Shown here: positions 1-12,066 of the stretch, one piece after another
How positions within the stretch are numbered: the first letter of the stretch is position 1
How the letters are laid out: each line of letters begins with the position of its first letter
Assembly (NCBI GenBank): GCA_017886205.1
Contig: JAFNEO010000009.1
Coordinates: 71,747 to 135,746 of the forward strand
Reading direction: 5' to 3'
DNA: 64,000 nt
DNA from: Candidatus Aminicenantes bacterium
GTDB lineage: Bacteria > Acidobacteriota > Aminicenantia > Aminicenantales > UBA8522
The notes under the pieces: model-generated
What the model was told of the DNA's origin: nothing
Database searches by the model: none
The model's input: the letters and a program-made list of their open reading frames with translations, nothing else
Program-made: the position numbers and the translations under genes

Positions 1-2
1 AA

Positions 3-344
3 AGGCTGCGCGGACTCGACTACGACGAGATCGTCCAGAAACCCTTTGATTCTGAGAGGCTGGCCCGGTTGGTCCGGGAGATCGTCGACCGCAAGAAAAC
101 CCCGCACTCCTTCCCCGAGGAGGCGTTGATCGAGGAATCCTCCGCAGCCGGCGTCCTCCCTTTGTTTAAGGAGGAAGAGTTCATCCCGCCGCCCTCATCC
201 CAACAGCCGGGGGACGAAGTCGAGGAAAAGGTCAGGAAGATGCTCCGGGACGAAATTCTGTCGGTAGAGAGGGAACTCGAGAAGAGGATCAAAGCGTCCC
301 TCCGGGCGGAGTTCAAGGAGTGGCTGGACAGGGAGAAGAAGTAG
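3..344 (+). CDS. Response-regulator receiver protein, C-terminal part (5' end lies outside the window)
   Basis: Frame is open from position 3 and reads RLRGLDYDEIVQKPFDSERLARLVREIVD; KPF followed by a helix is the end of a receiver domain. An acidic/coiled tail follows. Confidence 0.6.
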   Translation, partial: RLRGLDYDEIVQKPFDSERLARLVREIVDRKKTPHSFPEEALIEESSAAGVLPLFKEEEFIPPPSSQQPGDEVEEKVRKMLRDEILSVERELEKRIKASLRAEFKEWLDREKK

Positions 345-346
345 AG

Positions 347-2971
347 ATGAAAATCCTGGATAAATCTTACGACCCCAAGCCGGTGGAAGAGCGGTGGTCC
401 CGCTTTTGGATCGAGGCAGGCCTCTTCACACCCGAAGTCCCCTCGGCCAAGCCGAAGTTCTCCCTGGTCCTGCCTCCCCCCAATGTCACCGGGTCGCTCC
501 ACATGGGCCATGCCCTCTGTTTCACCCTCCCCGATATCATCTCCCGCTGGAAGCGGATGAAGGGGTACAACGTCCTCTGGCTCCCCGGCACCGACCACGC
601 CTCGATCGCCGTCCACAACGTGATCGAGCAGAGTCTCAAAGAAAAAGGGCTGAGCCGGGAGACGCTCGGCCGGGAGGAGTTCCTCAAGGTCGCCTGGGAA
701 TGGAAGCGGAAGTACGGCGGCATCATCACCGGCCAGCTCAAGAAGCTCGGCTGCTCGCTGGACTGGACGCGAGAGCGCTTCACCATGGACGAGGGCTTTT
801 CCCGGGCCGTGCGCCTAGTGTTCGTCAGCCTGTATAAAGAAGGCCTGATTTACCGGGATTACTATCTGGTCAACCGCTGCCCCCGCTGCAATACGGTGCT
901 CTCCGATATCGAGATTGAGCACAAAGAGCTACAGGGTAAGCTCCACTACATCAAGTACCCTGTGCTGGAGGGGGAGAGTACGATCGTCGTCGCCACCACC
1001 CGGCCAGAGACCATGCTGGGCGATACCGCCGTCGCCGTTCACCCCGATGACGAGCGCTATAAGTCCTTCCACGGGAAGACGCTAGTCCTTCCCTTGGTGA
1101 ACCGCAAGATCCCGGTCATCACGGACAGCCGGGTTGAAAAAGACTTTGGGACCGGCGCCGTCAAGGTCACACCGGCCCACGACCCCGTGGACTTCGAGCT
1201 GGGAAAGCTGCACGGCCTCGAGCAGGTCATCGTCATCGACGGATCGGGGAAGATGACCGAGGCGGCCGGAGCGGAGTTCCAGGGACTCGACCGGTTCGAG
1301 TGCCGCCGCAGGGTCGTCGAGCGTCTCCGGGAGCAGGGCTTATTGATTAAGGTCGAGGACTATCCGCACATGGTGGGGCATCATGACCGCTGCAAAACGG
1401 TCATCGAGCCGCATCTGAGCTGGCAGTGGTTCGTGAAAATGGCTCCCCTGGCCAAGGAGGCCATTCGGGTCGTCGAGGACGGGACGATCCAGTTCATCCC
1501 GGCCAACTGGGCCAAGAGCTATTTCGAGTGGATGTACAACATCCACGACTGGTGCATCTCCCGGCAGCTCTGGTGGGGACACCGGATTCCGGCCTGGTTC
1601 TGCCGGCCCTGCGGCGAGATCATCGTGGCCATGGAAACGCCGGCGAGATGCCCGAAGTGCGGAGGCGGAGAGCTCGTGCAGGACGAAGACGTGCTCGACA
1701 CCTGGTTCAGCTCGGCGCTCTGGCCGTTTGGTACCATGGGCTGGCCGGAGAAGACCGTCGACCTGGAGATGTTCTATCCCACCGACCTAATGGGCACGGC
1801 GTTCGACATCATCTTTTTCTGGGTGGCCCGGATGATCATGATGGGGCTCAAGTTCATGGGAGAGATCCCCTTCCGCCAGGTTTTTATAAACGGCCTGGTC
1901 CGCGACTTCCGGCGCCGCAAGATGAGCAAGTCCGAGGGTAACATTATTGATCCACTGGAGATGATCGAGAAATACGGAACGGACGCGCTGCGCTTCACCG
2001 TGGCGGCGCTGGCCATACCGGGCATGGACCTGTCGCTTTCCGAAGAACGCATGCTGGGCTACAGGGCCTTCGTCAACAAGATCTGGAACGCCTCGCGGTT
2101 CGTCCTGATGAACCTGGATGAAGAGCCGGCATCGATCGCGGAGAGCGAGTTGACTTTGGCCGACCGCTGGATCCGCAGCCGCCTGGCGCGGATTACGGCC
2201 GAGCTCGAGGCGGCGCTCGACCAGTACAAGTTCTATGAGGCCGCGGAGAAAATCTATCATTTCGTTTGGCACGAGTTCTGCGACTGGTACATCGAGATGG
2301 CCAAGCCCAGCCTCCAAGCGGGGAATAGGACGACACAAGCCGTGCTGGCCGGTGCTTTGGACCATATCCTGAAGCTCCTCAACCCGTTCATGCCGTTTGT
2401 CACCGAGGAGATCTGGAGCCACCTACCGGGTCACGGCAGATCCCTGGTCACGGCTGCTTTCCCCAAGAGCGAGGCGGCGGACGTAAACCCGCACGCCGAG
2501 GAGGAGATGAGCCTCCTCCAGGCACTCGTGGTCGAGGTTCGGACTATCCGGGCGGAAAACAAGATTTCGCCCCAAAAGAAGACCGCCATCCTGTTGAAGG
2601 CGCCGGGAGAGAAGGAGAAAGGGTTTATCCCCGAGATCCGGGCATACATCCTGGCCCTGGCCAACGGCTCCGAGGTCAGGGTCGAGGACCGGTTCCCGCC
2701 CGAGGCCCGGCTTCTCAAGGGCGTGGCGGGGTCCTGGGAAGTGGCGATCCCCCTGGAAGGAGAGGGCGACCTGGAGGCTGAGCGGGCCAGGCTGGAGAAG
2801 GAGATCAAGAAGGTGGAGGCCGAGATCGAAAAGCTCGAGGGCCGGCTCCAGAAGAAGGCCTTCCTCGAGCGGGCGCCCGGGCCGATTATCGAGGAGGCCA
2901 AGCAGAGCCTCCTCGGATGTCGAGATAAAAAGGCCAAGCTCCAGAAGAGCCTGGACAATATAAAGGCATAG
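347..2971 (+). CDS. valS: Valine--tRNA ligase
   Basis: PPPNVTGSLHMGH, TTRPETMLGD, DWCISRQLWWGH and KMSKS motifs plus a C-terminal coiled coil. ATG at 347 is preferred over the ORF-track start at 320. Confidence 0.98.
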   Translation: MKILDKSYDPKPVEERWSRFWIEAGLFTPEVPSAKPKFSLVLPPPNVTGSLHMGHALCFTLPDIISRWKRMKGYNVLWLPGTDHASIAVHNVIEQSLKEKGLSRETLGREEFLKVAWEWKRKYGGIITGQLKKLGCSLDWTRERFTMDEGFSRAVRLVFVSLYKEGLIYRDYYLVNRCPRCNTVLSDIEIEHKELQGKLHYIKYPVLEGESTIVVATTRPETMLGDTAVAVHPDDERYKSFHGKTLVLPLVNRKIPVITDSRVEKDFGTGAVKVTPAHDPVDFELGKLHGLEQVIVIDGSGKMTEAAGAEFQGLDRFECRRRVVERLREQGLLIKVEDYPHMVGHHDRCKTVIEPHLSWQWFVKMAPLAKEAIRVVEDGTIQFIPANWAKSYFEWMYNIHDWCISRQLWWGHRIPAWFCRPCGEIIVAMETPARCPKCGGGELVQDEDVLDTWFSSALWPFGTMGWPEKTVDLEMFYPTDLMGTAFDIIFFWVARMIMMGLKFMGEIPFRQVFINGLVRDFRRRKMSKSEGNIIDPLEMIEKYGTDALRFTVAALAIPGMDLSLSEERMLGYRAFVNKIWNASRFVLMNLDEEPASIAESELTLADRWIRSRLARITAELEAALDQYKFYEAAEKIYHFVWHEFCDWYIEMAKPSLQAGNRTTQAVLAGALDHILKLLNPFMPFVTEEIWSHLPGHGRSLVTAAFPKSEAADVNPHAEEEMSLLQALVVEVRTIRAENKISPQKKTAILLKAPGEKEKGFIPEIRAYILALANGSEVRVEDRFPPEARLLKGVAGSWEVAIPLEGEGDLEAERARLEKEIKKVEAEIEKLEGRLQKKAFLERAPGPIIEEAKQSLLGCRDKKAKLQKSLDNIKA

Positions 2972-2991
2972 CCGCGTCTTGCGGTCCTCCC

Positions 2992-3738
2992 ATGACCATC
3001 GGAACGACCATTCACAGCTTCTCCACGTGTCCCTCGACCAACGACCTGGCCAAACGGCTGGCCCGGGAGGGCTCGGCCGAGGGGACTGTGGTTCTCGCCG
3101 AAGAGCAGACCGAGGGCCGGGGGACCAAGGGGCGGAGCTGGCATTCACCCCGCGGCCAGGGCCTGTACGCGTCCATCATCCTGAGGCCGCTGCGCGCCGA
3201 CCTCTCCTTGCTTCCTCTTGCGGCCGGAGTCGCCTGCCTGGAGGCCATCCGGGAAGCGACCGGGCTCGAGGCCGCTCTCGAGTGGCCCAACGACATCGTC
3301 TGGAAACACCGCAAGCTCGGGGGCATCCTTTGCGAGGGCGAATTCCTGGGAAGCGCGGTGAGCTTCGCTGTCCTGGGCATCGGCCTGAACATAGGCCAGA
3401 TAAGGGACGACTTCCCCGCCGCGCTCCGGAGGACGGCGACCTCCCTACGGCTCGCCCTGGGCCGGGAGGTGGACAGGGCTGCGGTCGAAACGGCCCTCTG
3501 GCCGGTGCTCGACCGCTGGTACACGACGTGGGTTCGCGGCCGCAAAGAAGAGATCGTCCGGACGTATGAGTCTCGACTCGTTATCCCGGCCGGAGCGGAC
3601 GTCGAAGTCCGGAGGGAGGAAGGAACTCTGCGCGGAGTCTACCGCGGGATCGACCTCCGGGCGAGACTTAAGCTGGAAAAAGACGGAAAGGAAATCTTAT
3701 TATCCCCGGCAGAAATTTTGGCTATTGATTATAATTAG
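2992..3738 (+). CDS. birA: Biotin--[acetyl-CoA-carboxylase] ligase, without N-terminal HTH
   Basis: STN, QTEGRGTKGRSWHSP, WPND, KLGGILCE and GIGLN motifs. Confidence 0.93.
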   Translation: MTIGTTIHSFSTCPSTNDLAKRLAREGSAEGTVVLAEEQTEGRGTKGRSWHSPRGQGLYASIILRPLRADLSLLPLAAGVACLEAIREATGLEAALEWPNDIVWKHRKLGGILCEGEFLGSAVSFAVLGIGLNIGQIRDDFPAALRRTATSLRLALGREVDRAAVETALWPVLDRWYTTWVRGRKEEIVRTYESRLVIPAGADVEVRREEGTLRGVYRGIDLRARLKLEKDGKEILLSPAEILAIDYN

Positions 3739-3767
3739 GGCGCGCCCCGAAAAAGGAGACATGAACC

Positions 3768-4550
3768 ATGCTTCTGGCCATAGACATCGGGAACACCACG
3801 GTCGACCTGGGCGTTTTTGAGGGGAAGAGGCTGCTCAAGGACTGGAGGATCCGGTCTGTGCGGGAAAAGACGGCCGATGAGTACGGCATCACGCTGCTCG
3901 AGCTGCTGCGCACCTCCGGCCTCGACCCTTCGGCCATCAAGGGTGTCATCATCTCGAGCGTCGTTCCTCCGCTGACGCCGGCTTTCCAGGTCTTAAGCCA
4001 GAGTCTTTTAGGAGTAAAAGCCCTGGTCGTCGGTCCCGGCCTGCGGACCGGGATGCCCATCCTCTACGAGAACCCCGGCGAAGTGGGAGCGGACCGGGTG
4101 GTCGCCTCGGTCGGGGCCTTCGAGAAATACGGCGGTCCCTGCATCGTCGTGGATTTCGGAACGGCCACTACCTTTGATGCCGTCACGGCCAAGGGCGAAT
4201 ATCTGGGCGGCGCCATCGCCCCCGGAATCCAGATTTCGGCCGAGGCCCTCTACTTGCGGACGGCCAAGCTACCGCGGATCGAGGTCATCAAGCCGAAAAA
4301 GCCCATCGGCAAGACCACTGTCGCCAGCATGCAGTCGGGGATCTATCTTGGCTATATCGGCCTGGTCAACAACATCATCGCCGAGATCAGCAAAGAGATC
4401 GGGGTGGAGCCCAAGATCGTCGTCACCGGAGGGTTCGCTTCCCAGTTCGGGCCGGAGATCAGGGCCCCCCATCACCACGAGCCGCACCTGGTCCTCGAAG
4501 GCCTGCGGATCGTCTTCGAAAGGAACAAGGAGGAGAGACCAGCCGCCTGA
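3768..4550 (+). CDS. coaX: Type III pantothenate kinase
   Basis: LAIDIGNT, GADR, VVDFGTATT and GGAIAPG motifs; AAGGAG lies upstream. Confidence 0.96.
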   Translation: MLLAIDIGNTTVDLGVFEGKRLLKDWRIRSVREKTADEYGITLLELLRTSGLDPSAIKGVIISSVVPPLTPAFQVLSQSLLGVKALVVGPGLRTGMPILYENPGEVGADRVVASVGAFEKYGGPCIVVDFGTATTFDAVTAKGEYLGGAIAPGIQISAEALYLRTAKLPRIEVIKPKKPIGKTTVASMQSGIYLGYIGLVNNIIAEISKEIGVEPKIVVTGGFASQFGPEIRAPHHHEPHLVLEGLRIVFERNKEERPAA

Positions 4551-4581
4551 CGGTCAAAACACGGCCGGGACGAGGACGCTC

Positions 4582-5220
4582 ATGCCGCGAAAGGAAAATA
4601 AGAGTTTCTATTTCCAGGAAATCGCCAGGGCGTTCTTCGGCCTCCGCGGAGCGCCGTTCGTCCTCTCCTCCACGGACATGGTGACAATCTCTTCCTGGGA
4701 GGAGAGAGGCATTCCGCTGCGGATCGTCCTGGAGGGGATGGAGCGGGCCTTCGAGAACTACAGGAAGAGGGCGGCCCGGGGACGGAAGATGTCCTCTCTG
4801 TCTTTCTGTCAGGCCGAGATCTTGAGAGCTTTCGCCGAATTCAGGGACCGTGGGGTCGGCCGGGCCGAAAAAGGGGAATCCCGGGAGGACAAGAGAAAAA
4901 GGATTAAGGTCGAGGTCGAACGGTTCCTGAAGCTCCTGCCTGCCGAGGCGGGCTTTCTGGGCGAGGTCTATCGAGAGGCGCTGGCCGTCCTCAGCCGGAA
5001 AGAGGTCTCTGAAGAGACCCTCGAACGGCTGGACGCTAGGACCGAGGTGTTGATCGCCAAGCAGGCCGATGCCGCCGACCGGACGGAAGTGGAGAGGCGC
5101 GTCCGAGCGGATTTCCCCGGCCGTTCGGCGGAAGAGCTTCAGGGAATATGCCTTTTAGAGCTGGTCAAGCGGTGGCGCAAGAGATACCGGATTCCCTACC
5201 TCAGTTTTTATTATTATTAA
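4582..5220 (+). CDS. Hypothetical protein with a DnaD/DDBH2-like N-terminal helical motif
   Basis: Likely start is the ATG at 4582 (MPRKENKSFYFQEIAR); the upstream part of the 4174 ORF overlaps coaX. Contains LSSTDMVTISSWEERGIPLRIVLEGMERAF. Confidence 0.7.
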   Translation: MPRKENKSFYFQEIARAFFGLRGAPFVLSSTDMVTISSWEERGIPLRIVLEGMERAFENYRKRAARGRKMSSLSFCQAEILRAFAEFRDRGVGRAEKGESREDKRKRIKVEVERFLKLLPAEAGFLGEVYREALAVLSRKEVSEETLERLDARTEVLIAKQADAADRTEVERRVRADFPGRSAEELQGICLLELVKRWRKRYRIPYLSFYYY

Positions 5221-5224
5221 GACG

Positions 5225-7291
5225 ATGGAAGACGACGTACTGGCCTTGCTGAAACAAAAAAAGGGAGGGCTGTCCTTCCCTCAACTGGCCGGACTCCTCC
5301 ATGTCCGCGGACGTGCGCAGACGAAACTCCGGGCGGCGCTCAAGGTCCTGGAGAAGCGGGGAGCGATCTATAGGAAAAGAGACAACTATATCGTACCCCC
5401 GGACAGGACGGTCGTGCGCGGCGAGTTTCTTTCTTCGAACCGGGGATTCGGGTTTGTCCGGCCCGAGGGCGGCGGCCGGGAGGACGTTTTCATCCCGGCC
5501 CGGTATACTCTAGGAGCGCTCGGCGGCGACCTTGTTGAAATCTCGGTCAAGGAAAAGGGGAAGAAGGGAAAGCCCGAAGGGCAGGTCGTCCGCCTGCTGA
5601 AAAAAGGGCGGGAAACGCTGCTTGGGGTTTATAAGGAGCGGTTCGGGCAGCCGTATCTGGCGCCTTTTGATTCCTCGGCGGAAGAAATCCCGCTCTCCTC
5701 AACCGGCCGATTTTCCCCTTCGGACGGGGTCATCGTCGAAGCGGATCGGGATACGCTGGCCGTTAGGGATGTGCTCGGAATGCCCGACGATCCCGGCGTC
5801 GACACCCGGGTGATCATCAAACGCTTCGGCCTCAGATCGGAATTCCCGACCCAGGCTGCTGCCGAGGCCAAGAAGGTTCCGCGCCGGATTTCGGCCCAGG
5901 ACACAGAGGGAAGGGTCGACTACCGGGACTGGGCGACGGTGACGATCGACGGAGAGACGGCCCAGGACTTCGACGACGCGGTCAGCATCAGGAGGCTCCC
6001 CTCGGGTCACTATCGGCTCGCCGTCCACATCGCCGACGTCTCCCACTATGTCCGGCCGGGTTCCGCCCTGGACGAGGAGGCCCGAGGCCGGGCGACGAGC
6101 GTCTATTTTCCCGGCCTCACCCTGCCCATGCTCCCGGAAGAGCTCTCCAATGACCTCTGCAGCCTGCGGCCGCGGAAGCTGCGGCTGACCGTGACCGCGG
6201 TTCTCGAGGTCGACCTTAAAGGCCGAGTCGTCAAGGCCAAATTTCATCCTTCGATTATCAAGACGGTCGAGCGGATGACCTATACGTCGGTGTTCAAGAT
6301 CCTTGAGGGCGATGAGAAAGAGCGGCGGAAATACGCGGCCTTGGTCCCGGACTTCTTGCTGATGCGGGAGCTGGCGGCCGTTCTCAGGGCGAGGAGAGAA
6401 GAGCAGGGGAGCTTGAATTTCGACCTCCTCGAGCCCGAGCTCGTCTACCAGGAAGGCCGGCTCCAGGGGATCGCCGCGTTCGAGTCGAACGAGGCCCATC
6501 ATCTTATCGAGGAATTCATGGTGGCGGCCAACGAGGCGGTGGCCCGGTTTCTCAGCGAGGAAGAGCGGCCGTCTCTCTATCGCGTCCATCCTCCGCCCGG
6601 CCGGGCCGACCTCGAGGAACTGAGGGGTCTCCTTGAATGTTTCGGGCTGATGCTGCCTAAGCCCGAGAAAACGACCTCCCGAGACCTGCAGCGGGTCTTG
6701 AAGCTGGTGGAGGGAAAGCCGGAGGAAAAGATCATCCAGTTCCATGTCCTCCGGGCCCTCCGGATGGCGGCCTACGAGCCGGAGAATACCGGCCACTACG
6801 GCCTGGCGAAAAAGGACTACACTCATTTCACTTCCCCGATCCGGCGCTATCCCGACCTCATCGTCCACCGGGCTCTCAAGGCAGCGCTGCGGGGCGAAAG
6901 AGAAGACATCCCCGGTCTGCCCTCTCTGGCTCTTCATTGCTCCGAGCGGGAGAGGAAGGCGGACGGGGCTGAAAAAGAGCTGGTGGAATGGCGCATCTTC
7001 CGCTTCCTCAAGGCCAAGCTCGGAGAGGAGGTCAAGGGCATCATCGTCGACATCATCAATGCCGGAGTCGTGGTGGAGCTCGAGGATTACTTTGTTCGGG
7101 GCCTCATCCCCTTTGCCGACCTCGGGGGTGACTATTACTATCGCCGGTCGAAGCAGCTCCTCGTCGGCCGGCGTTCGGGCAGGCGGTTCACTATGGGCCA
7201 GCGGGTAAATGTCATCCTGGCGGCGGTCGACCCGCTGCTTCGCCGGATGACTCTGGTGTTGAGCCGCGAGGGCAAGAGAGGATCGCGATGA
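5225..7291 (+). CDS. rnr: Ribonuclease R
   Basis: N-terminal HTH, cold-shock GFGFV, RNB motifs TIDGETAQDFDDAVS and HFTSPIRRYPD, C-terminal S1 domain. Confidence 0.95.
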   Translation: MEDDVLALLKQKKGGLSFPQLAGLLHVRGRAQTKLRAALKVLEKRGAIYRKRDNYIVPPDRTVVRGEFLSSNRGFGFVRPEGGGREDVFIPARYTLGALGGDLVEISVKEKGKKGKPEGQVVRLLKKGRETLLGVYKERFGQPYLAPFDSSAEEIPLSSTGRFSPSDGVIVEADRDTLAVRDVLGMPDDPGVDTRVIIKRFGLRSEFPTQAAAEAKKVPRRISAQDTEGRVDYRDWATVTIDGETAQDFDDAVSIRRLPSGHYRLAVHIADVSHYVRPGSALDEEARGRATSVYFPGLTLPMLPEELSNDLCSLRPRKLRLTVTAVLEVDLKGRVVKAKFHPSIIKTVERMTYTSVFKILEGDEKERRKYAALVPDFLLMRELAAVLRARREEQGSLNFDLLEPELVYQEGRLQGIAAFESNEAHHLIEEFMVAANEAVARFLSEEERPSLYRVHPPPGRADLEELRGLLECFGLMLPKPEKTTSRDLQRVLKLVEGKPEEKIIQFHVLRALRMAAYEPENTGHYGLAKKDYTHFTSPIRRYPDLIVHRALKAALRGEREDIPGLPSLALHCSERERKADGAEKELVEWRIFRFLKAKLGEEVKGIIVDIINAGVVVELEDYFVRGLIPFADLGGDYYYRRSKQLLVGRRSGRRFTMGQRVNVILAAVDPLLRRMTLVLSREGKRGSR

Positions 7292-8373
7292 GGACCCAAC
7301 AGTTCGAGGCATCATTGGTGCTGGAGGACAGAGAAGGGACTCTCCCCGCCCAGGCGACGCTTCTCATCGGTGAACAAAAAGTGATCGCCGCGGTCCGCTC
7401 CTATGGCCCCGGGCCGGAGCCCAAGCGCGGGCGCCTTTTCTTGCGGGCGGTGGCTCGCCGTCCCCTTACGCTCAAGTGGAATAACACCTTCGCCGTTCTG
7501 GATACCCAGAAACGGGAGAGGATCGGGCGGGGGACGGTCCTCAACCCCGGCGTGCAGGAAGAGGCCAAGAGGAACGAGGAAGTTGATTGGGATTTTCTCC
7601 TGGCTCTCTCCGGAGACGAGATGGACATGCTCGATGCCCTCTGCCGGAAAAAGGGAACGAGCGGCCTCCACGAAAGGGAAATCACGGAGTTCTGTGACCT
7701 AAGCGAAGAGCGGCTCCTCCAATGGGGAGAAAAAATGGAGGAGGAGGGTAAGGTCAAGATCCTGTCCTTTTCGCCACTCCACCTAATATCCCGCGAGAGC
7801 TTTGACCACCTCGGCGAAAAAATCCTGGCCTACCTCGACCAGTTCCACGAAAAGCAGCCCGCCCAGAAGGGTGTGCTCCTCGAGAAGGTCAAGAAGAGGT
7901 TCGGCGTCTCCGAGAAGGTCCTGCACCTCGCTGTCAAGACGCTGGAAAAGGCCGGGAGGGCGCGCCAGGCCGGACCCCGTCTGATGCTCCCCTCTCATGA
8001 GATGGCGCTGTCGGCCCAGGAGGAGAAGATCCTCCAGAGGCTCGAGGAGATGTGCTACCGGGGCGAATTCCAGTCCGTCTCCCTGGAGGAAATCCGGCGG
8101 CAGTTCCACCTCTCCCAAGAGCGGCTGGAGAAGCTGCTCTCGCTCCTGACCGAACGGAAAAAGGTCATCCAGGGGCCGGAGGGGCTGTTCATCCATTCCC
8201 TCTGGCTGGATGATATCATCGTCCGGGTGAGGGCATTGGGTAAGAAGGAGATGACGGTGGCCAAGTTCAAGGAGCTCTCGGGCCTGAGCCGGAAATACGC
8301 CATCCCGCTTCTTGAGCTTCTCGACCAGATGGGTGTTACCCGCCGCCACGGCCCAGTGCGGGAAATTCTTTGA
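7288..8373 (+). CDS. SelB-like protein: EF domain III plus C-terminal winged helices, no GTPase domain
   Basis: C-terminus MTVAKFKELSGLSRKYAIPLLELLDQMGVTRRHG matches SelB WH4. N-terminus ending in IGRGTVLNP resembles SelB domain III. No P-loop. ATGA overlap with rnr. Confidence 0.8.
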   Translation: MRTQQFEASLVLEDREGTLPAQATLLIGEQKVIAAVRSYGPGPEPKRGRLFLRAVARRPLTLKWNNTFAVLDTQKRERIGRGTVLNPGVQEEAKRNEEVDWDFLLALSGDEMDMLDALCRKKGTSGLHEREITEFCDLSEERLLQWGEKMEEEGKVKILSFSPLHLISRESFDHLGEKILAYLDQFHEKQPAQKGVLLEKVKKRFGVSEKVLHLAVKTLEKAGRARQAGPRLMLPSHEMALSAQEEKILQRLEEMCYRGEFQSVSLEEIRRQFHLSQERLEKLLSLLTERKKVIQGPEGLFIHSLWLDDIIVRVRALGKKEMTVAKFKELSGLSRKYAIPLLELLDQMGVTRRHGPVREIL

Positions 8374-8390
8374 AAGAGGAGCGGATCACG

Positions 8391-10532
8391 ATGAAGAAAA
8401 CGGTAACCGCTTTGATCCTGACCGGCCTGTTTTTCGCGATGTTTATCTCCGCGGACGAAGGGATGTATCCGATCAGCGAGATCATGAAGCTCGACCTCCG
8501 GTCCAAGGGGCTGGAGATCGACCCGGCCGAGATTTTCGCGACGGACAAGAGCCTGATCTTCGCCATCGTCAGCGTGGGCGCGACTGGCTCATTCCTTTCG
8601 GCCGATGGCTTGTTTATAACGAACCACCACGTCGCCTTCGGCGCCGTCCAGGCGGCGAGTACCAAAGAAAACGATTACCTCCGCAACGGGTTTTTGGCCC
8701 GGACAAGGGCCGAGGAGATCCAGGCCAAAGGGATGACGGCCCGCATTACAGAGTCATACAGGGATGTATCGGCAGATGTCCTGAGCGCCGTGAAGCCGGA
8801 CATGGACTATGCGGCCCGCACCAGGGCCATAGAGAGGAGGACCAAGGAGATCGTGGCGCGCACGGAAAAAGAAAACCCGGGCAAACGGGCCGAAGTGGCC
8901 GAGATGTTTACGGGAAAGACCTATATCCTGTTTATTTACACATATTTAAAAGATATCCGCCTGGTTTATGTCCCGCCCCGCTCCATCGGTGAATTCGGCG
9001 GCGAAGAAGACAACTGGATGTGGCCGCGCCACACCGGAGACTTCTCCTTCCTGAGGGCCTATGTCGCTCCGGACGGGTCGCCGGCGGACTACGCAGCCCA
9101 GAACGTCCCCTTCAAACCCAGGCGCTTTTTGCGGGTTGCAGCCCGGGGTGTCAATGAGGGCGACTTCGTTTTTCTCCTGGGCTATCCCGGTCGGACCTTC
9201 CGGCACAGCACGGCCGGCTACCTGGCTTTCGAGGAAGAAGTCCGGATGCCCTATGTCGCCGACTGGTATGCCTGGCAGATCGACCTCATGGAAAAAATGG
9301 GCGCAGAGGACCGCGGAGTCGCGCTCCTCCATGCCGCGCGCATCAAGGGGCTGGCCAACACGATGAAGAATTTCCGCGGCAAGCTCAAGGGGATGAAAAG
9401 GCTCGGGCTGGTCGAGCGCCGGCGAGAAGAAGAGAAAGCGCTCCAGAGCTTCATCGCAGCGGATGAGAAACGGCGGTCCCAGAACGGGACGATCCTGAAT
9501 GATATCACCGGGGTTTATGAGGAGATGCGGGCGGCCTTCGATTATGAGACGGTCCTGGACTATCTGCGCGGGTCGGTGAACCTGGTCGGGTCCGCCTTTA
9601 CGGTTTACGAGGCGGCGCTCGAGCGGCAGAAGGCGGACCTCGAGCGCGAGCCGGCATACATGGACCGGAACTTTCCCCAAACGAAACAGAGGCTTCTGCT
9701 CTCCCTCCGCAACTACTATGAGCCCACGGACAAGGCCATTTTCAAGGAGCTGCTTCTCCGGGCCTCCAGGCTCAAGGGGCCGAACCGAATCAAGGCGGTC
9801 GACGAGCTGTTTCAGGAAGACTTCGGTGAGCCGGTCATCGATGCCTATTTAAACAAATCCTATGGAGCCTCGAGGATGAATGACGCCAAGTTCGTTGAGG
9901 AACTGCTCGCTAAAACTCCGGAGCAGATGGCCGCGGTCCAGGACCCCTTCCTCGACCTGGCCAGGGCTCTTTACCCTGCGGTCCTGGAGGGGCGCGAAAA
10001 ACAGAAGGCCCGCCGGGGCGCGCTCGACCCGCTCTACGCCCGCCTGAGCGACGTCAAGGAGGCCTACTTGGGAAAGAGCTTCATCCCGGATGCTAACAAC
10101 ACGCTGCGGCTGACCTACGGGCGGATCAAAGGGTATGAGCCAGCGGATGCGGTTTATTACGAGCCTTTCACGACACTCCGGGGCGTCCTGGAAAAGACGA
10201 CGGGCCGGGAGCCCTTCGATACGCCGGCCACCCTGTTTGACCTCTCTAAGGCCCGCGACTTCGGCGCCTTCGAGCACCCTCAGCTCCACGACGTGCCCGT
10301 CTGCATTCTTTACGATACTGATACGACCGGCGGTAACTCGGGAAGCCCGGTGATCAACGCCCGGGGTGAGTTGGTGGGGGTCAATTTCGACCGGACTTAC
10401 GAGGCGACTATCAATGACTACGCCTGGAGCGAGGAATACAGCCGGTCGATCGCCGTGGACATCCGGTATGTCCTGTGGGTCACGCAGAAGTTCGCCGGAG
10501 CGGAATTCCTCCTTAGGGAGATGGGGCTTTAG
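8391..10532 (+). CDS. S46 family dipeptidyl peptidase, secreted (DPP7/DPP11-like)
   Basis: Signal peptide followed by ADEGMY; TNHH, NWMWPRHTGDF, TGGNSGSPV and NFDR motifs. Confidence 0.93.
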   Translation: MKKTVTALILTGLFFAMFISADEGMYPISEIMKLDLRSKGLEIDPAEIFATDKSLIFAIVSVGATGSFLSADGLFITNHHVAFGAVQAASTKENDYLRNGFLARTRAEEIQAKGMTARITESYRDVSADVLSAVKPDMDYAARTRAIERRTKEIVARTEKENPGKRAEVAEMFTGKTYILFIYTYLKDIRLVYVPPRSIGEFGGEEDNWMWPRHTGDFSFLRAYVAPDGSPADYAAQNVPFKPRRFLRVAARGVNEGDFVFLLGYPGRTFRHSTAGYLAFEEEVRMPYVADWYAWQIDLMEKMGAEDRGVALLHAARIKGLANTMKNFRGKLKGMKRLGLVERRREEEKALQSFIAADEKRRSQNGTILNDITGVYEEMRAAFDYETVLDYLRGSVNLVGSAFTVYEAALERQKADLEREPAYMDRNFPQTKQRLLLSLRNYYEPTDKAIFKELLLRASRLKGPNRIKAVDELFQEDFGEPVIDAYLNKSYGASRMNDAKFVEELLAKTPEQMAAVQDPFLDLARALYPAVLEGREKQKARRGALDPLYARLSDVKEAYLGKSFIPDANNTLRLTYGRIKGYEPADAVYYEPFTTLRGVLEKTTGREPFDTPATLFDLSKARDFGAFEHPQLHDVPVCILYDTDTTGGNSGSPVINARGELVGVNFDRTYEATINDYAWSEEYSRSIAVDIRYVLWVTQKFAGAEFLLREMGL

Positions 10533-10615
10533 TGAGCCTCAGACGTCCTCGTTTATACGAATTGAACTCAGCGAACGATGAAAGGAAAGAACCGCTTGAC
10601 TCGACTCGACGGTGA

Positions 10616-11992
10616 TCATTTGATGATGTGGAACTTCGTCTGGCGGCCGTCGAGAAAGAAGACTCCCTTTTCCGTAAAGGCCACGGCCTGTTCCAGAGGC
10701 AGACGGAATTCCTTGCCTTCGCCCCATTCCGGAACGGGCGCCGTCACGCTCATCTCGGCCGTGAAGCAGCTGTTCGGGACAAGCTTAACGTCGCCCCGCC
10801 CCGGGTTGTTCACCTGTTCCCACGGCAGTCCGATGAGCGGTCCCGGCTCGTGAAGAAAATAGCCGAGCGAATGCGAGTACACCCGGGGCCCGGGGATTCC
10901 CGACTCTTTAGCCTTCCTCAGGATGTTACCCAGCAGTTCGTTTCCGGTGAGGCCGGCCTTGAACGCGCCGCAGAAGATGTCCTGGAGCCAGTTCTCCTCG
11001 GCCATGATCTTGCGAAAAATCTCGGGAACATCGGTTTCGCCGGCCCTGAGCACGTAGGCCATTTCCTGGGCATCGGAATTGCACCGCATGTACTTGAGAC
11101 CGACATCGCAATGGACGAGGTCGCCCGGCCGGATGACCTTGTCGTCTTTGCCGTACTTCTCGATATCCTTGGGATGGCGGCCGCGGATGCTGACAAACGG
11201 GCTGAAGGAAACCTTGAGCCCCAAGTCGGCGACGCGCTGCCAGTAATACCAGCGGAGGTCGTCGGTTGTGGTATGGCCTGGCGTTGTGACCTTGTTGGAA
11301 AACATATCGGCGATGATCGAATGGGAGACGACCTGGGCCCGCTCCATGAGCTCGATCTCCTCGTCCAGCAGGGTCTCCGACCATAGCGTGGCCAAGGGCT
11401 CGGCCGATTGGAGGCGCGCCGCCATTTTCGGTCCGATCGCCTCGACGAGCCTTTTCTTGAGGACGGCGGTCAGGCCGCCAGCCGCCCACTGAACTTCGCC
11501 CTCATTGATGCCGATCCTTTTCGGGTCGCGCTCCCGGACGATCCGCCCCAGGCAGTCCCACTGGCTTTCTTTCTTCTGCGCATCCCAAGCCGAGGCGTCC
11601 CAGACGTTCTTGAAGAGCCCTTGTGTGTCCGTGCGGGAGACGTTGAGCCGCTCGACACCTTTTTCAGCGCCCTGGTCAAAAAGGACGAGAATCTGAGTGA
11701 TCGGATTCCAATTTTCATACGGCATCATGGTCTCAAAGATGGGGTCGGGATTGTCCTCGTTACAGCTGATAATCCACATGTCGAACCCGGTCTCCCGCAT
11801 CATCTTGGGCAGGAGCCCATCGAGCCGCTTCTGGGTGATCTGGAGGGTGAGCGCCGCCCTCTCCCGGATGCTCAGGACGGCGGGAACATCCTGATCGGAG
11901 AGGGGGGCAGATAAGACGGTCGGTGCAACGGTCAAGGCGGTAAGTCCAATAAGGATAGATATGAAGATTGAGAGAGGAAGCCTTTTGGGCAT
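10616..11992 (-). CDS. M24 family (Xaa-Pro) aminopeptidase, secreted
   Basis: Signal peptide; metal-ligand motifs HCDVG, SDAQE, HSLG, AEM and LEQ. Confidence 0.85.
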   Translation of the reverse strand: MPKRLPLSIFISILIGLTALTVAPTVLSAPLSDQDVPAVLSIRERAALTLQITQKRLDGLLPKMMRETGFDMWIISCNEDNPDPIFETMMPYENWNPITQILVLFDQGAEKGVERLNVSRTDTQGLFKNVWDASAWDAQKKESQWDCLGRIVRERDPKRIGINEGEVQWAAGGLTAVLKKRLVEAIGPKMAARLQSAEPLATLWSETLLDEEIELMERAQVVSHSIIADMFSNKVTTPGHTTTDDLRWYYWQRVADLGLKVSFSPFVSIRGRHPKDIEKYGKDDKVIRPGDLVHCDVGLKYMRCNSDAQEMAYVLRAGETDVPEIFRKIMAEENWLQDIFCGAFKAGLTGNELLGNILRKAKESGIPGPRVYSHSLGYFLHEPGPLIGLPWEQVNNPGRGDVKLVPNSCFTAEMSVTAPVPEWGEGKEFRLPLEQAVAFTEKGVFFLDGRQTKFHIIK

Positions 11993-12066
11993 TTGAACTC
12001 CTTTTCGCCAGAATTATCTTCGGATTTGTCCGAAAAGGCAACCGTCGCACTCACCGCCGACCTTAT

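Follow-up and report, generated by a model that had tools for sequence, protein, structure and literature searches.

A free-standing, GTPase-less SelB paralogue encoded behind RNase R in the Aminicenantia

The winged-helix arm of SelB is the textbook reader of an mRNA hairpin that recodes a stop codon. What such an arm might do as a gene of its own, lying behind the gene for an exoribonuclease, is the question raised by a locus of a Candidatus Aminicenantes bacterium (GenBank assembly GCA_017886205.1, contig JAFNEO010000009.1, positions 71,747 to 135,746 of the forward strand). Three features of the window, i.e. the whole stretch of 64,000 nucleotides that was analysed, define this gene, here called selBL, and its junction with rnr:

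5225..7291, plus strand: rnr, coding for an RNase R of 688 aa that ends just after its S1 domain (TIGR02063; RNB, OB_RNB, CSD2 and S1 domains)
7288..7291, plus strand: ATGA, in which the start codon of selBL overlaps the stop codon of rnr (direct sequence reading)
7288..8373, plus strand: selBL, a GTPase-less SelB paralogue of 361 aa, coding sequence including the stop codon (Pfam, NCBIfam, fold and family conservation)

A preliminary description of this DNA had reported an uninterrupted 361-aa frame with an ATGA overlap to rnr, and both can be read directly from the sequence: the ORF is intact, and in the context GATCGCGATGAGGAC the ATG at 7288 shares bases with the TGA of the ORF at 5225..7291. 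Many relatives likewise show this overlap or are separated from rnr by just a few bases. The junction is not an assembly artefact, because it is spanned by contigs from three further public metagenome runs (X5 record 20, covering 6200-8500 with 0 differences; X19 record 4, covering 6527-8068; and X7 record 30, covering 6971-7446). In a promoter and terminator scan of window positions 1500-11000, no signal that would separate rnr from selBL rose above what shuffled sequence gives. A further run from a metatranscriptome library (X20) holds small contigs over orf214 (the ORF upstream of rnr), rnr and positions 7780-7931 of selBL at 90-95% likeness, these matches being contigs, possibly from a relative, and no demonstration of transcription. 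We suggest that selBL and rnr share one transcript and that translation of selBL is probably coupled to that of RNase R.

The modeled fold of the selBL product is that of SelB domain III followed by the four winged helices WH1-4, without the GTPase and domain II, and can be divided as follows:

7288..7557, plus strand: beta-barrel equivalent to SelB/EF-Tu domain III, residues 1-90 (VIA-align)
7588..7992, plus strand: WH1 and WH2, residues 101-235 (AlphaFold2 secondary structure, SelB-wing_2)
7993..8370, plus strand: WH3 and WH4, the SECIS-hairpin-binding pair in SelB, residues 236-361 (fold, SelB-wing_3, invariant columns)

On this architecture, which had been proposed from the letters alone, Pfam, the AlphaFold2 model (pLDDT 85.8) and structure alignment agree. 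Pfam recognizes SelB-wing_3 (PF09107) at 319-358 (7.6e-16; 57.8 bits against a gathering threshold of 23.2) and SelB-wing_2 (PF09106) at 180-232 (1.6e-5; 25.3 bits against 22.3), with no match to GTP_EFTU (PF00009) or PF03144, and the selB equivalog model TIGR00475 gives 54.7 bits, below its cut-off of 242.25, over model positions 407-575 of 581 only. A profile built from 41 selBL sequences hits the complete set of four winged helices in Moorella SelB (1lva, E 1.9e-29, query 114-360). Structure comparison (VIA-align, with Foldseek also run) aligns residues 1..361 of the model to 267..581 of Aquifex SelB (4zu9) and to 263..606 of E. coli SelB (5lzb chain z, Z 14.5); the model also aligns to 377..632 of Moorella SelB (1lva, Z 17.6). 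Taken in parts, model residues 1..89 align with EF-Tu 299..393 (Z about 11, rmsd 1.7-2.6), 109..241 with Moorella SelB 377..511 (Z 11.6), and 241..361 with 511..632 of the Moorella WH3/4-SECIS complex 1wsu (Z 15.2, rmsd 2.0, 120 aligned). Aquifex SelB domain 3 is given as residues 266-342 (PMC4605307), and the fold, by placing the start of selBL at Aquifex SelB 267, bears out the earlier suggestion that the ORF begins near the domain III boundary. Domain III has a calculated pI of 11.1, WH2 and WH4 each one of 10.0. A long form of 470 aa carries an N-terminal 242 aa with no Pfam match even at E 10.

The statement that GTPase motifs are missing holds in part. GxxxxGK[ST] and NKxD are absent from the 361-aa protein and a P-loop is found in 0 of 56 family members; three copies of the bare DxxG tetrapeptide are present (DREG at 14, DHLG at 173 and DQMG at 346), all of them in the barrel or the winged helices and none in a G domain. 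The part said to be retained, the SelB WH4 RNA-binding motif, is indeed kept: LSRKYAIPLLELLDQMGVTRR begins at residue 333 and belongs to a near-invariant WH3/WH4 motif of the family, GLSRKYAIPLLELLDQMGVTRRxGxxREIL. Across the family SRKYAIPLLELLD..TRR.G is nearly invariant, and the stretch FK..TGLSRKYAIPLLELLD...TRR.G..R shows little or no variation in both the 41-member and the 56-member sets; particular residues of the motif are presumed to contact RNA. The same consensus is common to Moorella SelB (...TRRVG) and to 74 true SelBs, which were chosen by words shared with selBL.

In terms of known proteins, selBL is closest to bacterial SelB (Moorella thermoacetica 1lva/1wsu/2uwm, E. coli 2pjp/5lzb, Aquifex aeolicus 4zu9), with which it shares the fold, the order from domain III to the C-terminus and the WH4 sequence motif. 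Unlike SelB, it is without domains I and II, and therefore without GTP binding and aminoacyl-tRNA binding, so that we concur with the preliminary description that it is no elongation factor by itself; its gene adjoins rnr rather than selA/selD and is found in genomes without the selenocysteine (Sec) machinery; and it forms a clade separate from the sampled SelBs. All 26 selBL rows of the tree lie on one side of a branch with SH-aLRT 98, apart from 60 sampled SelBs, and about 54 cluster representatives score at least 180 bits while every full-length SelB scores at most 166 bits.

Rather than full-length SelB orthologues, a strain-specific deletion or a dN/dS near 1, against which the preliminary description had set its proposal, we find selBL in all 41 genomes of the order of the host, with a length that stays at about 361 aa while identity falls from 100% to 46%. 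Its dN/dS of 0.13-0.22, next to 0.11-0.19 for rnr (12 pairs with unsaturated dS), and the length kept over the whole order uphold the earlier view that it is not in simple decay. Selection is stronger on WH1/WH2 than on the barrel: dN/dS is 0.10-0.15 in the former, whereas domain III is the least constrained part (0.29-0.37) and is missing in some lineages. One family of the class (f12) has a diverged selBL of 347-368 aa. selBL is an ancient paralogue retained in most of the class Aminicenantia (class and lineage names as given by record titles and source labels). It is a functional, stand-alone version of the half of SelB that binds mRNA, and is neither decayed nor strain-specific.

Its distribution is independent of selenocysteine decoding. 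The host genome does have a full-length SelB (a 658-aa ORF with 351.6 bits, over the cut-off) in a canonical selA-selD-selB cluster, which lies on another contig (C8) than selBL, but across the order SelB passes the cut-off in only 17 of the 41 genomes, and selA is found in 0 of the five SelB-less genomes tested, two of which are single-contig. A tRNA-Sec search of these five genomes gave borderline matches of 46-49 bits around the cut-off, the same as in control genomes, and ARAGORN found no tRNA at one selA locus (L009). Given its presence in species without the Sec machinery, selBL probably reads RNA hairpins for another purpose. We also considered whether the diverged WH4 of the host's own SelB (SRKFACAVLEYLD) might insulate it from cross-talk with selBL; this idea was not adopted, because the 74 comparison SelBs had been picked by words shared with selBL and because both types of WH4 motif are ordinary among SelBs.

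Upstream of rnr, the locus contains a conserved cluster spanning 2992..5220:

2992..3738, plus strand: birA (Pfam BPL_LplA_LipB)
3768..4550, plus strand: coaX (Pfam Pan_kinase)
4576..5220, plus strand: orf214, an uncharacterised ORF of 214 aa, without a Pfam, PDB-profile or named Atlas match

The order birA-coaX-orf214-rnr-selBL recurs across loci L037-L116, and rnr immediately precedes selBL on the same strand in 39 of the 41 genomes of the host's order and likewise in 75 of 80 loci. Elsewhere in the class, 8 of 9 loci from other orders have rnr upstream of selBL but separated from it by a single gene; this gene is pgi in both loci tested, and these clusters therefore also hold unrelated genes. 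The link is strong, but not absolute: one genome (G025, 92% complete) yields no RNB-domain match, yet keeps birA-coaX-orf214-selBL, an rnr-less order of the same kind occurs in 3 of the 80 loci, and in family f12 the 8 kb of sequence covered at each locus holds rnr in 0 of 4 cases; at the single f12 locus tested, the gene before selBL codes for a GT2 glycosyltransferase. The RNase R itself scores 660.7 bits against TIGR02063 (cut-off 597.85), and the profile of the E. coli-type enzyme, NF008648, is matched up to position 720 of 813 only; in this class RNase R measures 682-703 aa and ends 10-30 residues past the S1 domain. In one lineage (f10) a short lysine-rich RNase R tail occurs together with selBL. 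No RNase R-selBL fusion is present among 74 matches of 633-2000 aa, which is weak evidence; all 74 of these longer relatives are SelBs of 633-667 aa with a GTP_EFTU domain. A candidate RNA near the selBL gene emerged neither from an Rfam scan of window positions 1-12000 (0 matches at E up to 1) nor from RNAalifold at the rnr/selBL junction (0 predicted pairs in 56 loci, -90 to +60 around the selBL start).

The explanation toward which we lean is that selBL is a selenocysteine-independent binder of RNA hairpins, co-expressed with RNase R and active in the same RNA pathway without being an obligate subunit of the enzyme. WH3 and WH4 would grip a SECIS-like RNA stem-loop as they do in SelB, and the basic WH2 together with domain III might provide a second contact, either with the 30S shoulder, as in SelB, or with another RNA. 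The protein may thus act in the RNA-turnover or quality-control pathway of RNase R, marking or shielding RNAs that bear hairpins. The module itself has precedent: isolated WH3/4 of E. coli SelB, a SECIS-hairpin binder, sequesters SECIS-tagged tRNAs in vivo (PMC7590224), i.e. a lone SelB winged-helix module binds RNA hairpins in the cell. In a model of SelB, WHD3/4 keep the SECIS close to where the mRNA enters, and WHD1/2 touch helix 16 of the 16S rRNA (PMC4605307). A hairpin reader working with RNase R, one of the possibilities raised in the preliminary description, fits the strong rnr-selBL order, though any reading of selBL as a partner of RNase R is weakened because one lineage keeps it without an RNB-domain gene and one family has it beside a glycosyltransferase gene.

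A closer tie, which we consider possible but unlikely, is that selBL is a physical adaptor that binds RNase R and steers it to, or holds it off, hairpin RNAs, perhaps replacing the long basic C-terminal tail without which this RNase R ends. In E. coli that tail serves ribosome or RNA binding, and the short enzymes of the class, the partial NF008648 match, the ATGA overlap and the tight gene order, which persists across orders, would all suit such a role; against it stand the retention of selBL in G025, where an RNB-domain gene was not found, its distance from rnr in family f12, the failure to find a fusion among the longer relatives, and the f10 lineage with both a lysine-rich tail and selBL. 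The same retention of selBL without rnr in some lineages would favour a ribosome-associated factor independent of RNase R, which might dock at the 30S shoulder and mRNA entrance and tune the translation of hairpin-bearing mRNAs. The protein keeps the full geometry of ribosome-bound SelB (domain III, spacer and WH1-4), and the placement of WHD1/2 and the SECIS in the SelB model is compatible with this, but without domains I and II it would have no anchor at the factor-binding site, and domain III is dispensable in several lineages; we rate this proposal as rather doubtful.

Much less room is left for readings that take selBL back to selenocysteine or away from RNA. Excess C-terminal domain of SelB inhibits recoding in E. 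coli, WH4 of selBL keeps the SelB consensus and the host genome uses Sec (selA, selD and selB on C8), so that a competitive regulator which occupies SECIS elements and tunes UGA recoding, as the preliminary description had entertained, is conceivable; as the main role it is contradicted by the presence of selBL in 41 of 41 genomes against SelB in 17, by the missing selA of the SelB-less genomes and by the lack of linkage to the sel genes, and we deem it very improbable. Winged helices more often bind DNA, which counts against the RNA-hairpin reading itself, and weak sub-threshold Pfam matches to RPA_C and HTH_PafC, and to FeoC in one relative, are to DNA-type HTH families. A transcription regulator merely descended from SelB nevertheless seems highly improbable, for conservation peaks precisely at the WH4 motif specific to SelB, and selBL stands at the end of a housekeeping operon, with no divergent arrangement of the kind typical of regulators seen. 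Nothing but the truncated architecture speaks for half of a split SelB, a decaying remnant or an artefact of assembly: a full-length SelB beside selA and selD in the same genome removes the split, and this together with the low dN/dS, the fixed length and the independent contigs that bridge the junction rules out all three.

The archaeal SelB-like proteins (aSelBL) keep a translational GTPase body. Like selBL, aSelBL is a SelB paralogue in organisms that do not decode Sec, but it is described as an elongation-factor-like homologue (PMC3037878), whereas selBL is only the bacterial RNA-binding extension, with the GTPase lost. The C-terminal fragments of SelB are laboratory constructs, whereas selBL occurs in nature across the class and is held under purifying selection, with putative hairpin binding. 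A strongly conserved natural SelB arm, without the elongation-factor body and in bacteria without selenocysteine, implies a second cellular use of the same RNA-reading device, and its steady place behind rnr offers a concrete, testable lead toward hairpin reading as part of RNA decay or quality control. A bolder version, in our view unlikely, extends the recognition of SECIS-type hairpins beyond Sec decoding: the RNA-reading arm of an Aminicenantia SelB would have been freed from its GTPase long ago and, as a stand-alone reader of SECIS-like stem-loops acting on a defined set of RNAs, would direct or restrain RNase R or ribosome-linked RNA surveillance. If true, a bacterial exoribonuclease would here have a targeting factor of a new kind.

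Members of the family are named 'SelB C-terminal domain-containing protein' at NCBI and 'selenocysteine-specific elongation factor' at JGI. Both are domain-based labels only, and the latter is wrong for the function of selBL, because the protein is without a G domain; many members are mislabelled in this way, which could inflate counts of the Sec trait in genome surveys of Aminicenantes. The Aminicenantia that bear selBL are uncultured sediment bacteria.

The short GTPase-less SelB paralogue of the window (selBL) is an uninterrupted ORF whose ATG overlaps the TGA of the gene before it (GATCGCGATGAGGAC), as the preliminary description had it, and that gene encodes RNase R (rnr; 660.7 bits to TIGR02063, cut-off 597.85), with the OB_RNB, CSD2, RNB and S1 domains all found.

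5225..7291, +: rnr, RNase R
7288..8373, +: selBL, 361-aa uninterrupted ORF (ORF search of the window)
selBL residues 180-232: SelB-wing_2 (domain search)
selBL residues 319-358: SelB-wing_3 (E 7.6e-16)

A domain search of the 361-aa protein recovered no GTP_EFTU domain, and the alignment to the selB equivalog profile TIGR00475 covered the final third alone, at 54.7 bits, below the cut-off of 242.25. The earlier claim that GTPase motifs are absent holds for the P-loop, which motif search did not find in selBL (it is likewise seen in 0 of 56 relatives), nor did it find NKxD; but the bare DxxG pattern does occur, three times, each outside a G-domain context. Contigs of three other public metagenome runs span the rnr/selBL junction, which rules out an assembly artefact as the cause of the truncation.

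An AlphaFold2 model of selBL (alignment of 41 relatives; mean pLDDT 85.8) consists of a beta-barrel followed by four winged helices (WH1-4), and its top Foldseek matches are the ribosome-bound E. coli SelB, a C-terminal fragment of Moorella SelB and Aquifex SelB (E 1e-16 to 5e-13).

Residues 2-86: beta-barrel
Residues 101-168, 169-233, 243-303 and 304-360: winged helices
Model 1..89 with EF-Tu 299..393 (VIA-align): Z about 11
Model 1..361 with Aquifex SelB 267..581 (VIA-align): Z 14.5
Model 1..361 with E. coli SelB 263..606 (VIA-align): Z 14.5
Model 109..361 with Moorella SelB 377..632 (VIA-align): Z 17.6, rmsd 3.4, 250 aligned
Model 241..361 with the WH3/4-SECIS complex 1wsu (VIA-align): Z 15.2, rmsd 2.0

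As the model aligns from residue 267 of Aquifex SelB, whose domain 3 is given as residues 266-342 in PMC4605307, the start of selBL falls exactly on that of domain III, near which the preliminary description had placed it. The family sequence profile matches Moorella SelB over each of its four winged helices (E 1.9e-29). Conservation within the family peaks in WH4: LSRKYAIPLLELLDQMGVTRR, previously reported as retained, starts at residue 333, and all 56 members share F327, K328, L333, R335, K336, A338-P340, L342-D346, T351 and R353, a 41-member set being similar. The consensus FK..tG..RKYAIPLLE.lD...vTrR.G..R.Il is common to selBL and 74 true SelBs, the latter picked by shared words and hence biased towards the WH4 motif; Moorella SelB carries it too. 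The true SelBs of the order (L001, L130-L144) have WH4 variants of the form SRK(Y/F)ACAVLEYLD or SRKYAQAILEYFD, whereas selBL has SRKYAIPLLELLD, a motif nearer to that of Moorella SelB.

According to PMC4605307, WHD3/4 of SelB hold the SECIS hairpin close to the mRNA entrance, WHD1/2 contact 16S helix 16 in a model, D3 touches the T and extra arms of tRNA-Sec, and a spacer fixes WHD1 to D3; PMC7590224 describes isolated E. coli WH3/4 as sequestering SECIS-tagged tRNAs in vivo. selBL keeps the hairpin-binding winged helices of SelB, and it probably binds RNA hairpins. Window positions 1-12000 have no match to Rfam families, and no conserved RNA structure was found at the rnr/selBL junction.

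In a quick, unrooted IQ-TREE tree of domain III and WH1-4 (86 rows), a branch with SH-aLRT 98 splits all 26 selBL rows from all 60 SelBs, and the 14 SelBs of Aminicenantales group together in a clade (99) that does not adjoin selBL. On this phylogeny selBL appears as an old, separate lineage, for which the unrooted tree indicates no donor. The family comes in three lengths. The 361-aa form has only domain III before WH1-4, and short forms of about 255-286 aa, directly 3' of rnr, start at WH1 and occur also in both single-contig genomes. A long form of 467-470 aa is present in family f10 and in two metagenome clusters; residues 1-210 of its model match some 205 residues of EF-Tu/EF1A-type factors (Z about 12), and the complete model matches E. 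coli SelB 1..611 (Z 19.7). These alignments suggest retention of domains II and III and loss of the G domain, in a model built on a 5-sequence alignment with low confidence over the N-terminal 140 residues (pLDDT 41-78). Comparison of the three forms identifies WH1-4 as the constant core.

Whether selBL could be half of a split SelB, or the sole SelB of its genome, is decided by the genome itself (58 contigs, 93% complete), where a search for sel genes located the following cluster.

Contig C8:64972-69661: canonical selA-selD-selB cluster (loci L001, L009, L010)

Its selB, a 658-aa ORF scoring 351.6 bits, is full-length, from the G domain through domain 2 and the SelB beta-barrel to the winged helices; over WH3-4, selBL shares only about 30% identity with it. 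This full-length gene refutes the split reading, and the cluster implies that the organism does decode selenocysteine (Sec); an ARAGORN scan of the selA locus detected no tRNA. The view of selBL as a decaying SelB fares no better, while the earlier argument against simple decay is borne out: relatives keep a steady length of about 361 aa at identities from 100% down to 46%, and Nei-Gojobori dN/dS is 0.13-0.22 as against 0.11-0.19 for rnr of the same genomes (12 pairs with unsaturated dS; 3 further pairs were saturated). Broken down by region, the barrel has a dN/dS of 0.29-0.37, WH1-2 one of 0.10-0.15 and WH3-4 one of 0.09-0.21.

A strain-specific deletion is excluded by the presence of selBL in 41/41 genomes of the order (its own and 40 relatives; 9 families, 19 genera). 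The same count speaks against the suggestion of a competitive regulator of Sec insertion as the main role, since SelB scores above the curated cut-off in only 17/41, and selA was found in 0/5 SelB-less genomes searched (G004, G025, G032, G034, G040), G034 and G040 being single-contig genomes. Scans of these five for tRNA-Sec gave hits of 46-49 bits, close to the cut-off and no different from those in control genomes. selBL is thus a selected, old SelB paralogue without a G domain, independent of the Sec machinery, and we have little doubt that it is a functional, SelB-derived protein. NCBI names its relatives 'SelB C-terminal domain-containing protein' (Candidatus Aminicenantes/Aminicenantales); the JGI name, 'selenocysteine-specific elongation factor', is wrong.

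In the class outside the order, the short form is clearly present in 9 of 18 sampled genomes (E 1e-35 to 1e-106); six members of family f12 have a weak match (E 1e-9 to 1e-15) and three, likewise f12, none. Some match exists in 243/301 genomes of the phylum sample, a tally that alone includes the genomes flagged unpublished (G064, G089, G192); among the listed matches outside the class, almost every one falls in an open frame of at least about 620 aa, like full-length SelB, and five fall in frames of only 123-289 aa (G097, G148, G213, G242, G252). In a profile search of 1.84 billion cluster representatives, about 54 reach at least 180 bits, mostly of 341-371 aa and some of 255-272 aa; lower scores belong to full-length SelBs (at most 166 bits) and SelB fragments. 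Wherever the best 80 genomic loci name an organism, it is Aminicenantes or a placeholder label, in a scan that could not detect distant forms because it used family-specific peptide patterns.

In most cases, though not in all, selBL comes immediately after the RNase R gene. By coordinates, rnr ends at most about 340 nt 5' of it on the same strand in 39/41 genomes of the order, the exceptions being G030, with the two genes on different contig fragments, and G025 (92% complete), which has no RNB-domain match yet keeps birA-coaX-orf214-selBL. The order birA-coaX-orf214-rnr-selBL (orf214 being an uncharacterised 214-aa ORF) recurs in the 80 loci, with rnr upstream in 75; in L072, L082 and L098 (Candidatus Aminicenans sakinawicola) orf214 lies directly 5' of selBL and rnr is absent, and two loci end at a contig edge. 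Of nine loci from other orders of the class, eight have rnr upstream in the same orientation, and the ninth contig is too short to show this; the genes are closely packed, with overlapping stop and start codons and one intervening gene, a phosphoglucose isomerase in 2/2 loci tested.

L118 3619..4953: phosphoglucose isomerase between rnr and selBL
L123 3911..5131: phosphoglucose isomerase between rnr and selBL

In f12 (L145-L148) a diverged selBL of 347-368 aa, with WH4 such as SRKYLIVLFEYWD and SelB-wing_3 at E 6e-12 and 4e-15 in two proteins tested, has rnr nearby in 0/4 loci (8 kb each) and follows immediately after a gene some 500 aa long, which in L146, the single locus tested, codes for a GT2 glycosyltransferase. 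A search of 74 longer relatives for a fusion of RNase R with selBL found none.

We propose that selBL would grip an RNA stem-loop in the manner of SelB. As its start codon overlaps the rnr stop and the two genes presumably share a transcript, it might work with RNase R in the turnover or quality control of RNA; it could mark RNAs that carry hairpins or protect them, or have its place at the mRNA entrance of the ribosome. Some lineages lack an adjoining rnr, or any rnr, which argues against an obligate RNase R subunit. A direct functional tie between the two seems to us rather doubtful. The case is solid as comparative genomics, while function is a matter of inference. No natural bacterial SelB paralogue without GTPase is described in the available portions of the literature searched (including PMC4605307, bioRxiv 10.1101/2025.02.04.636165, PMC7590224 and PMC8124441), though supplementary selenium-use surveys may list such proteins, and databases know the family as a domain label only. 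The nearest published concept, going by the available text, is the archaeal SelB-like family (PMC3037878), which differs in being an elongation-factor-like homologue.

RNase R of the class has 682-703 aa and ends 10-30 residues past the S1 domain (window; L117-L129), with a short lysine-rich tail in f10 only; that of the window covers the E. coli-type profile NF008648 only to position 720 of 813. Three rnr matches, in as many relatives, contain one in-frame stop each (G017:C7:668734-670794, TGA; G033:C38:6426-8462, TAG; G039:C5:77793-79838, TAG), which may reflect sequencing error, a pseudogene or recoding. The window's genome has a second, shorter RNB-domain gene (contig C13:91649-92944, -; open frame 507 aa), 32% identical to rnr over residues 195-620, with similar paralogues in several relatives. 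The product of orf214 (4576..5220, +), conserved in position between coaX and rnr across the order and adjoining selBL directly where rnr is missing, is matched by no Pfam family, PDB profile or named Atlas entry. Its neighbours in the Atlas, from Acidobacteriota and Aminicenantota, are hypothetical proteins, and among its conserved residues are W41, C78 and a YKIPYLS.FYY near the C-terminus. Without a gap after selBL follows an S46 family peptidase (8370..10532, +; PF10459, E 1.6e-201), a neighbour common only to the nearest relatives (7/80 loci); the true start of the peptidase is probably 8391, as the ATG there precedes the signal-peptide-like MKKTVTALILTGLFF.
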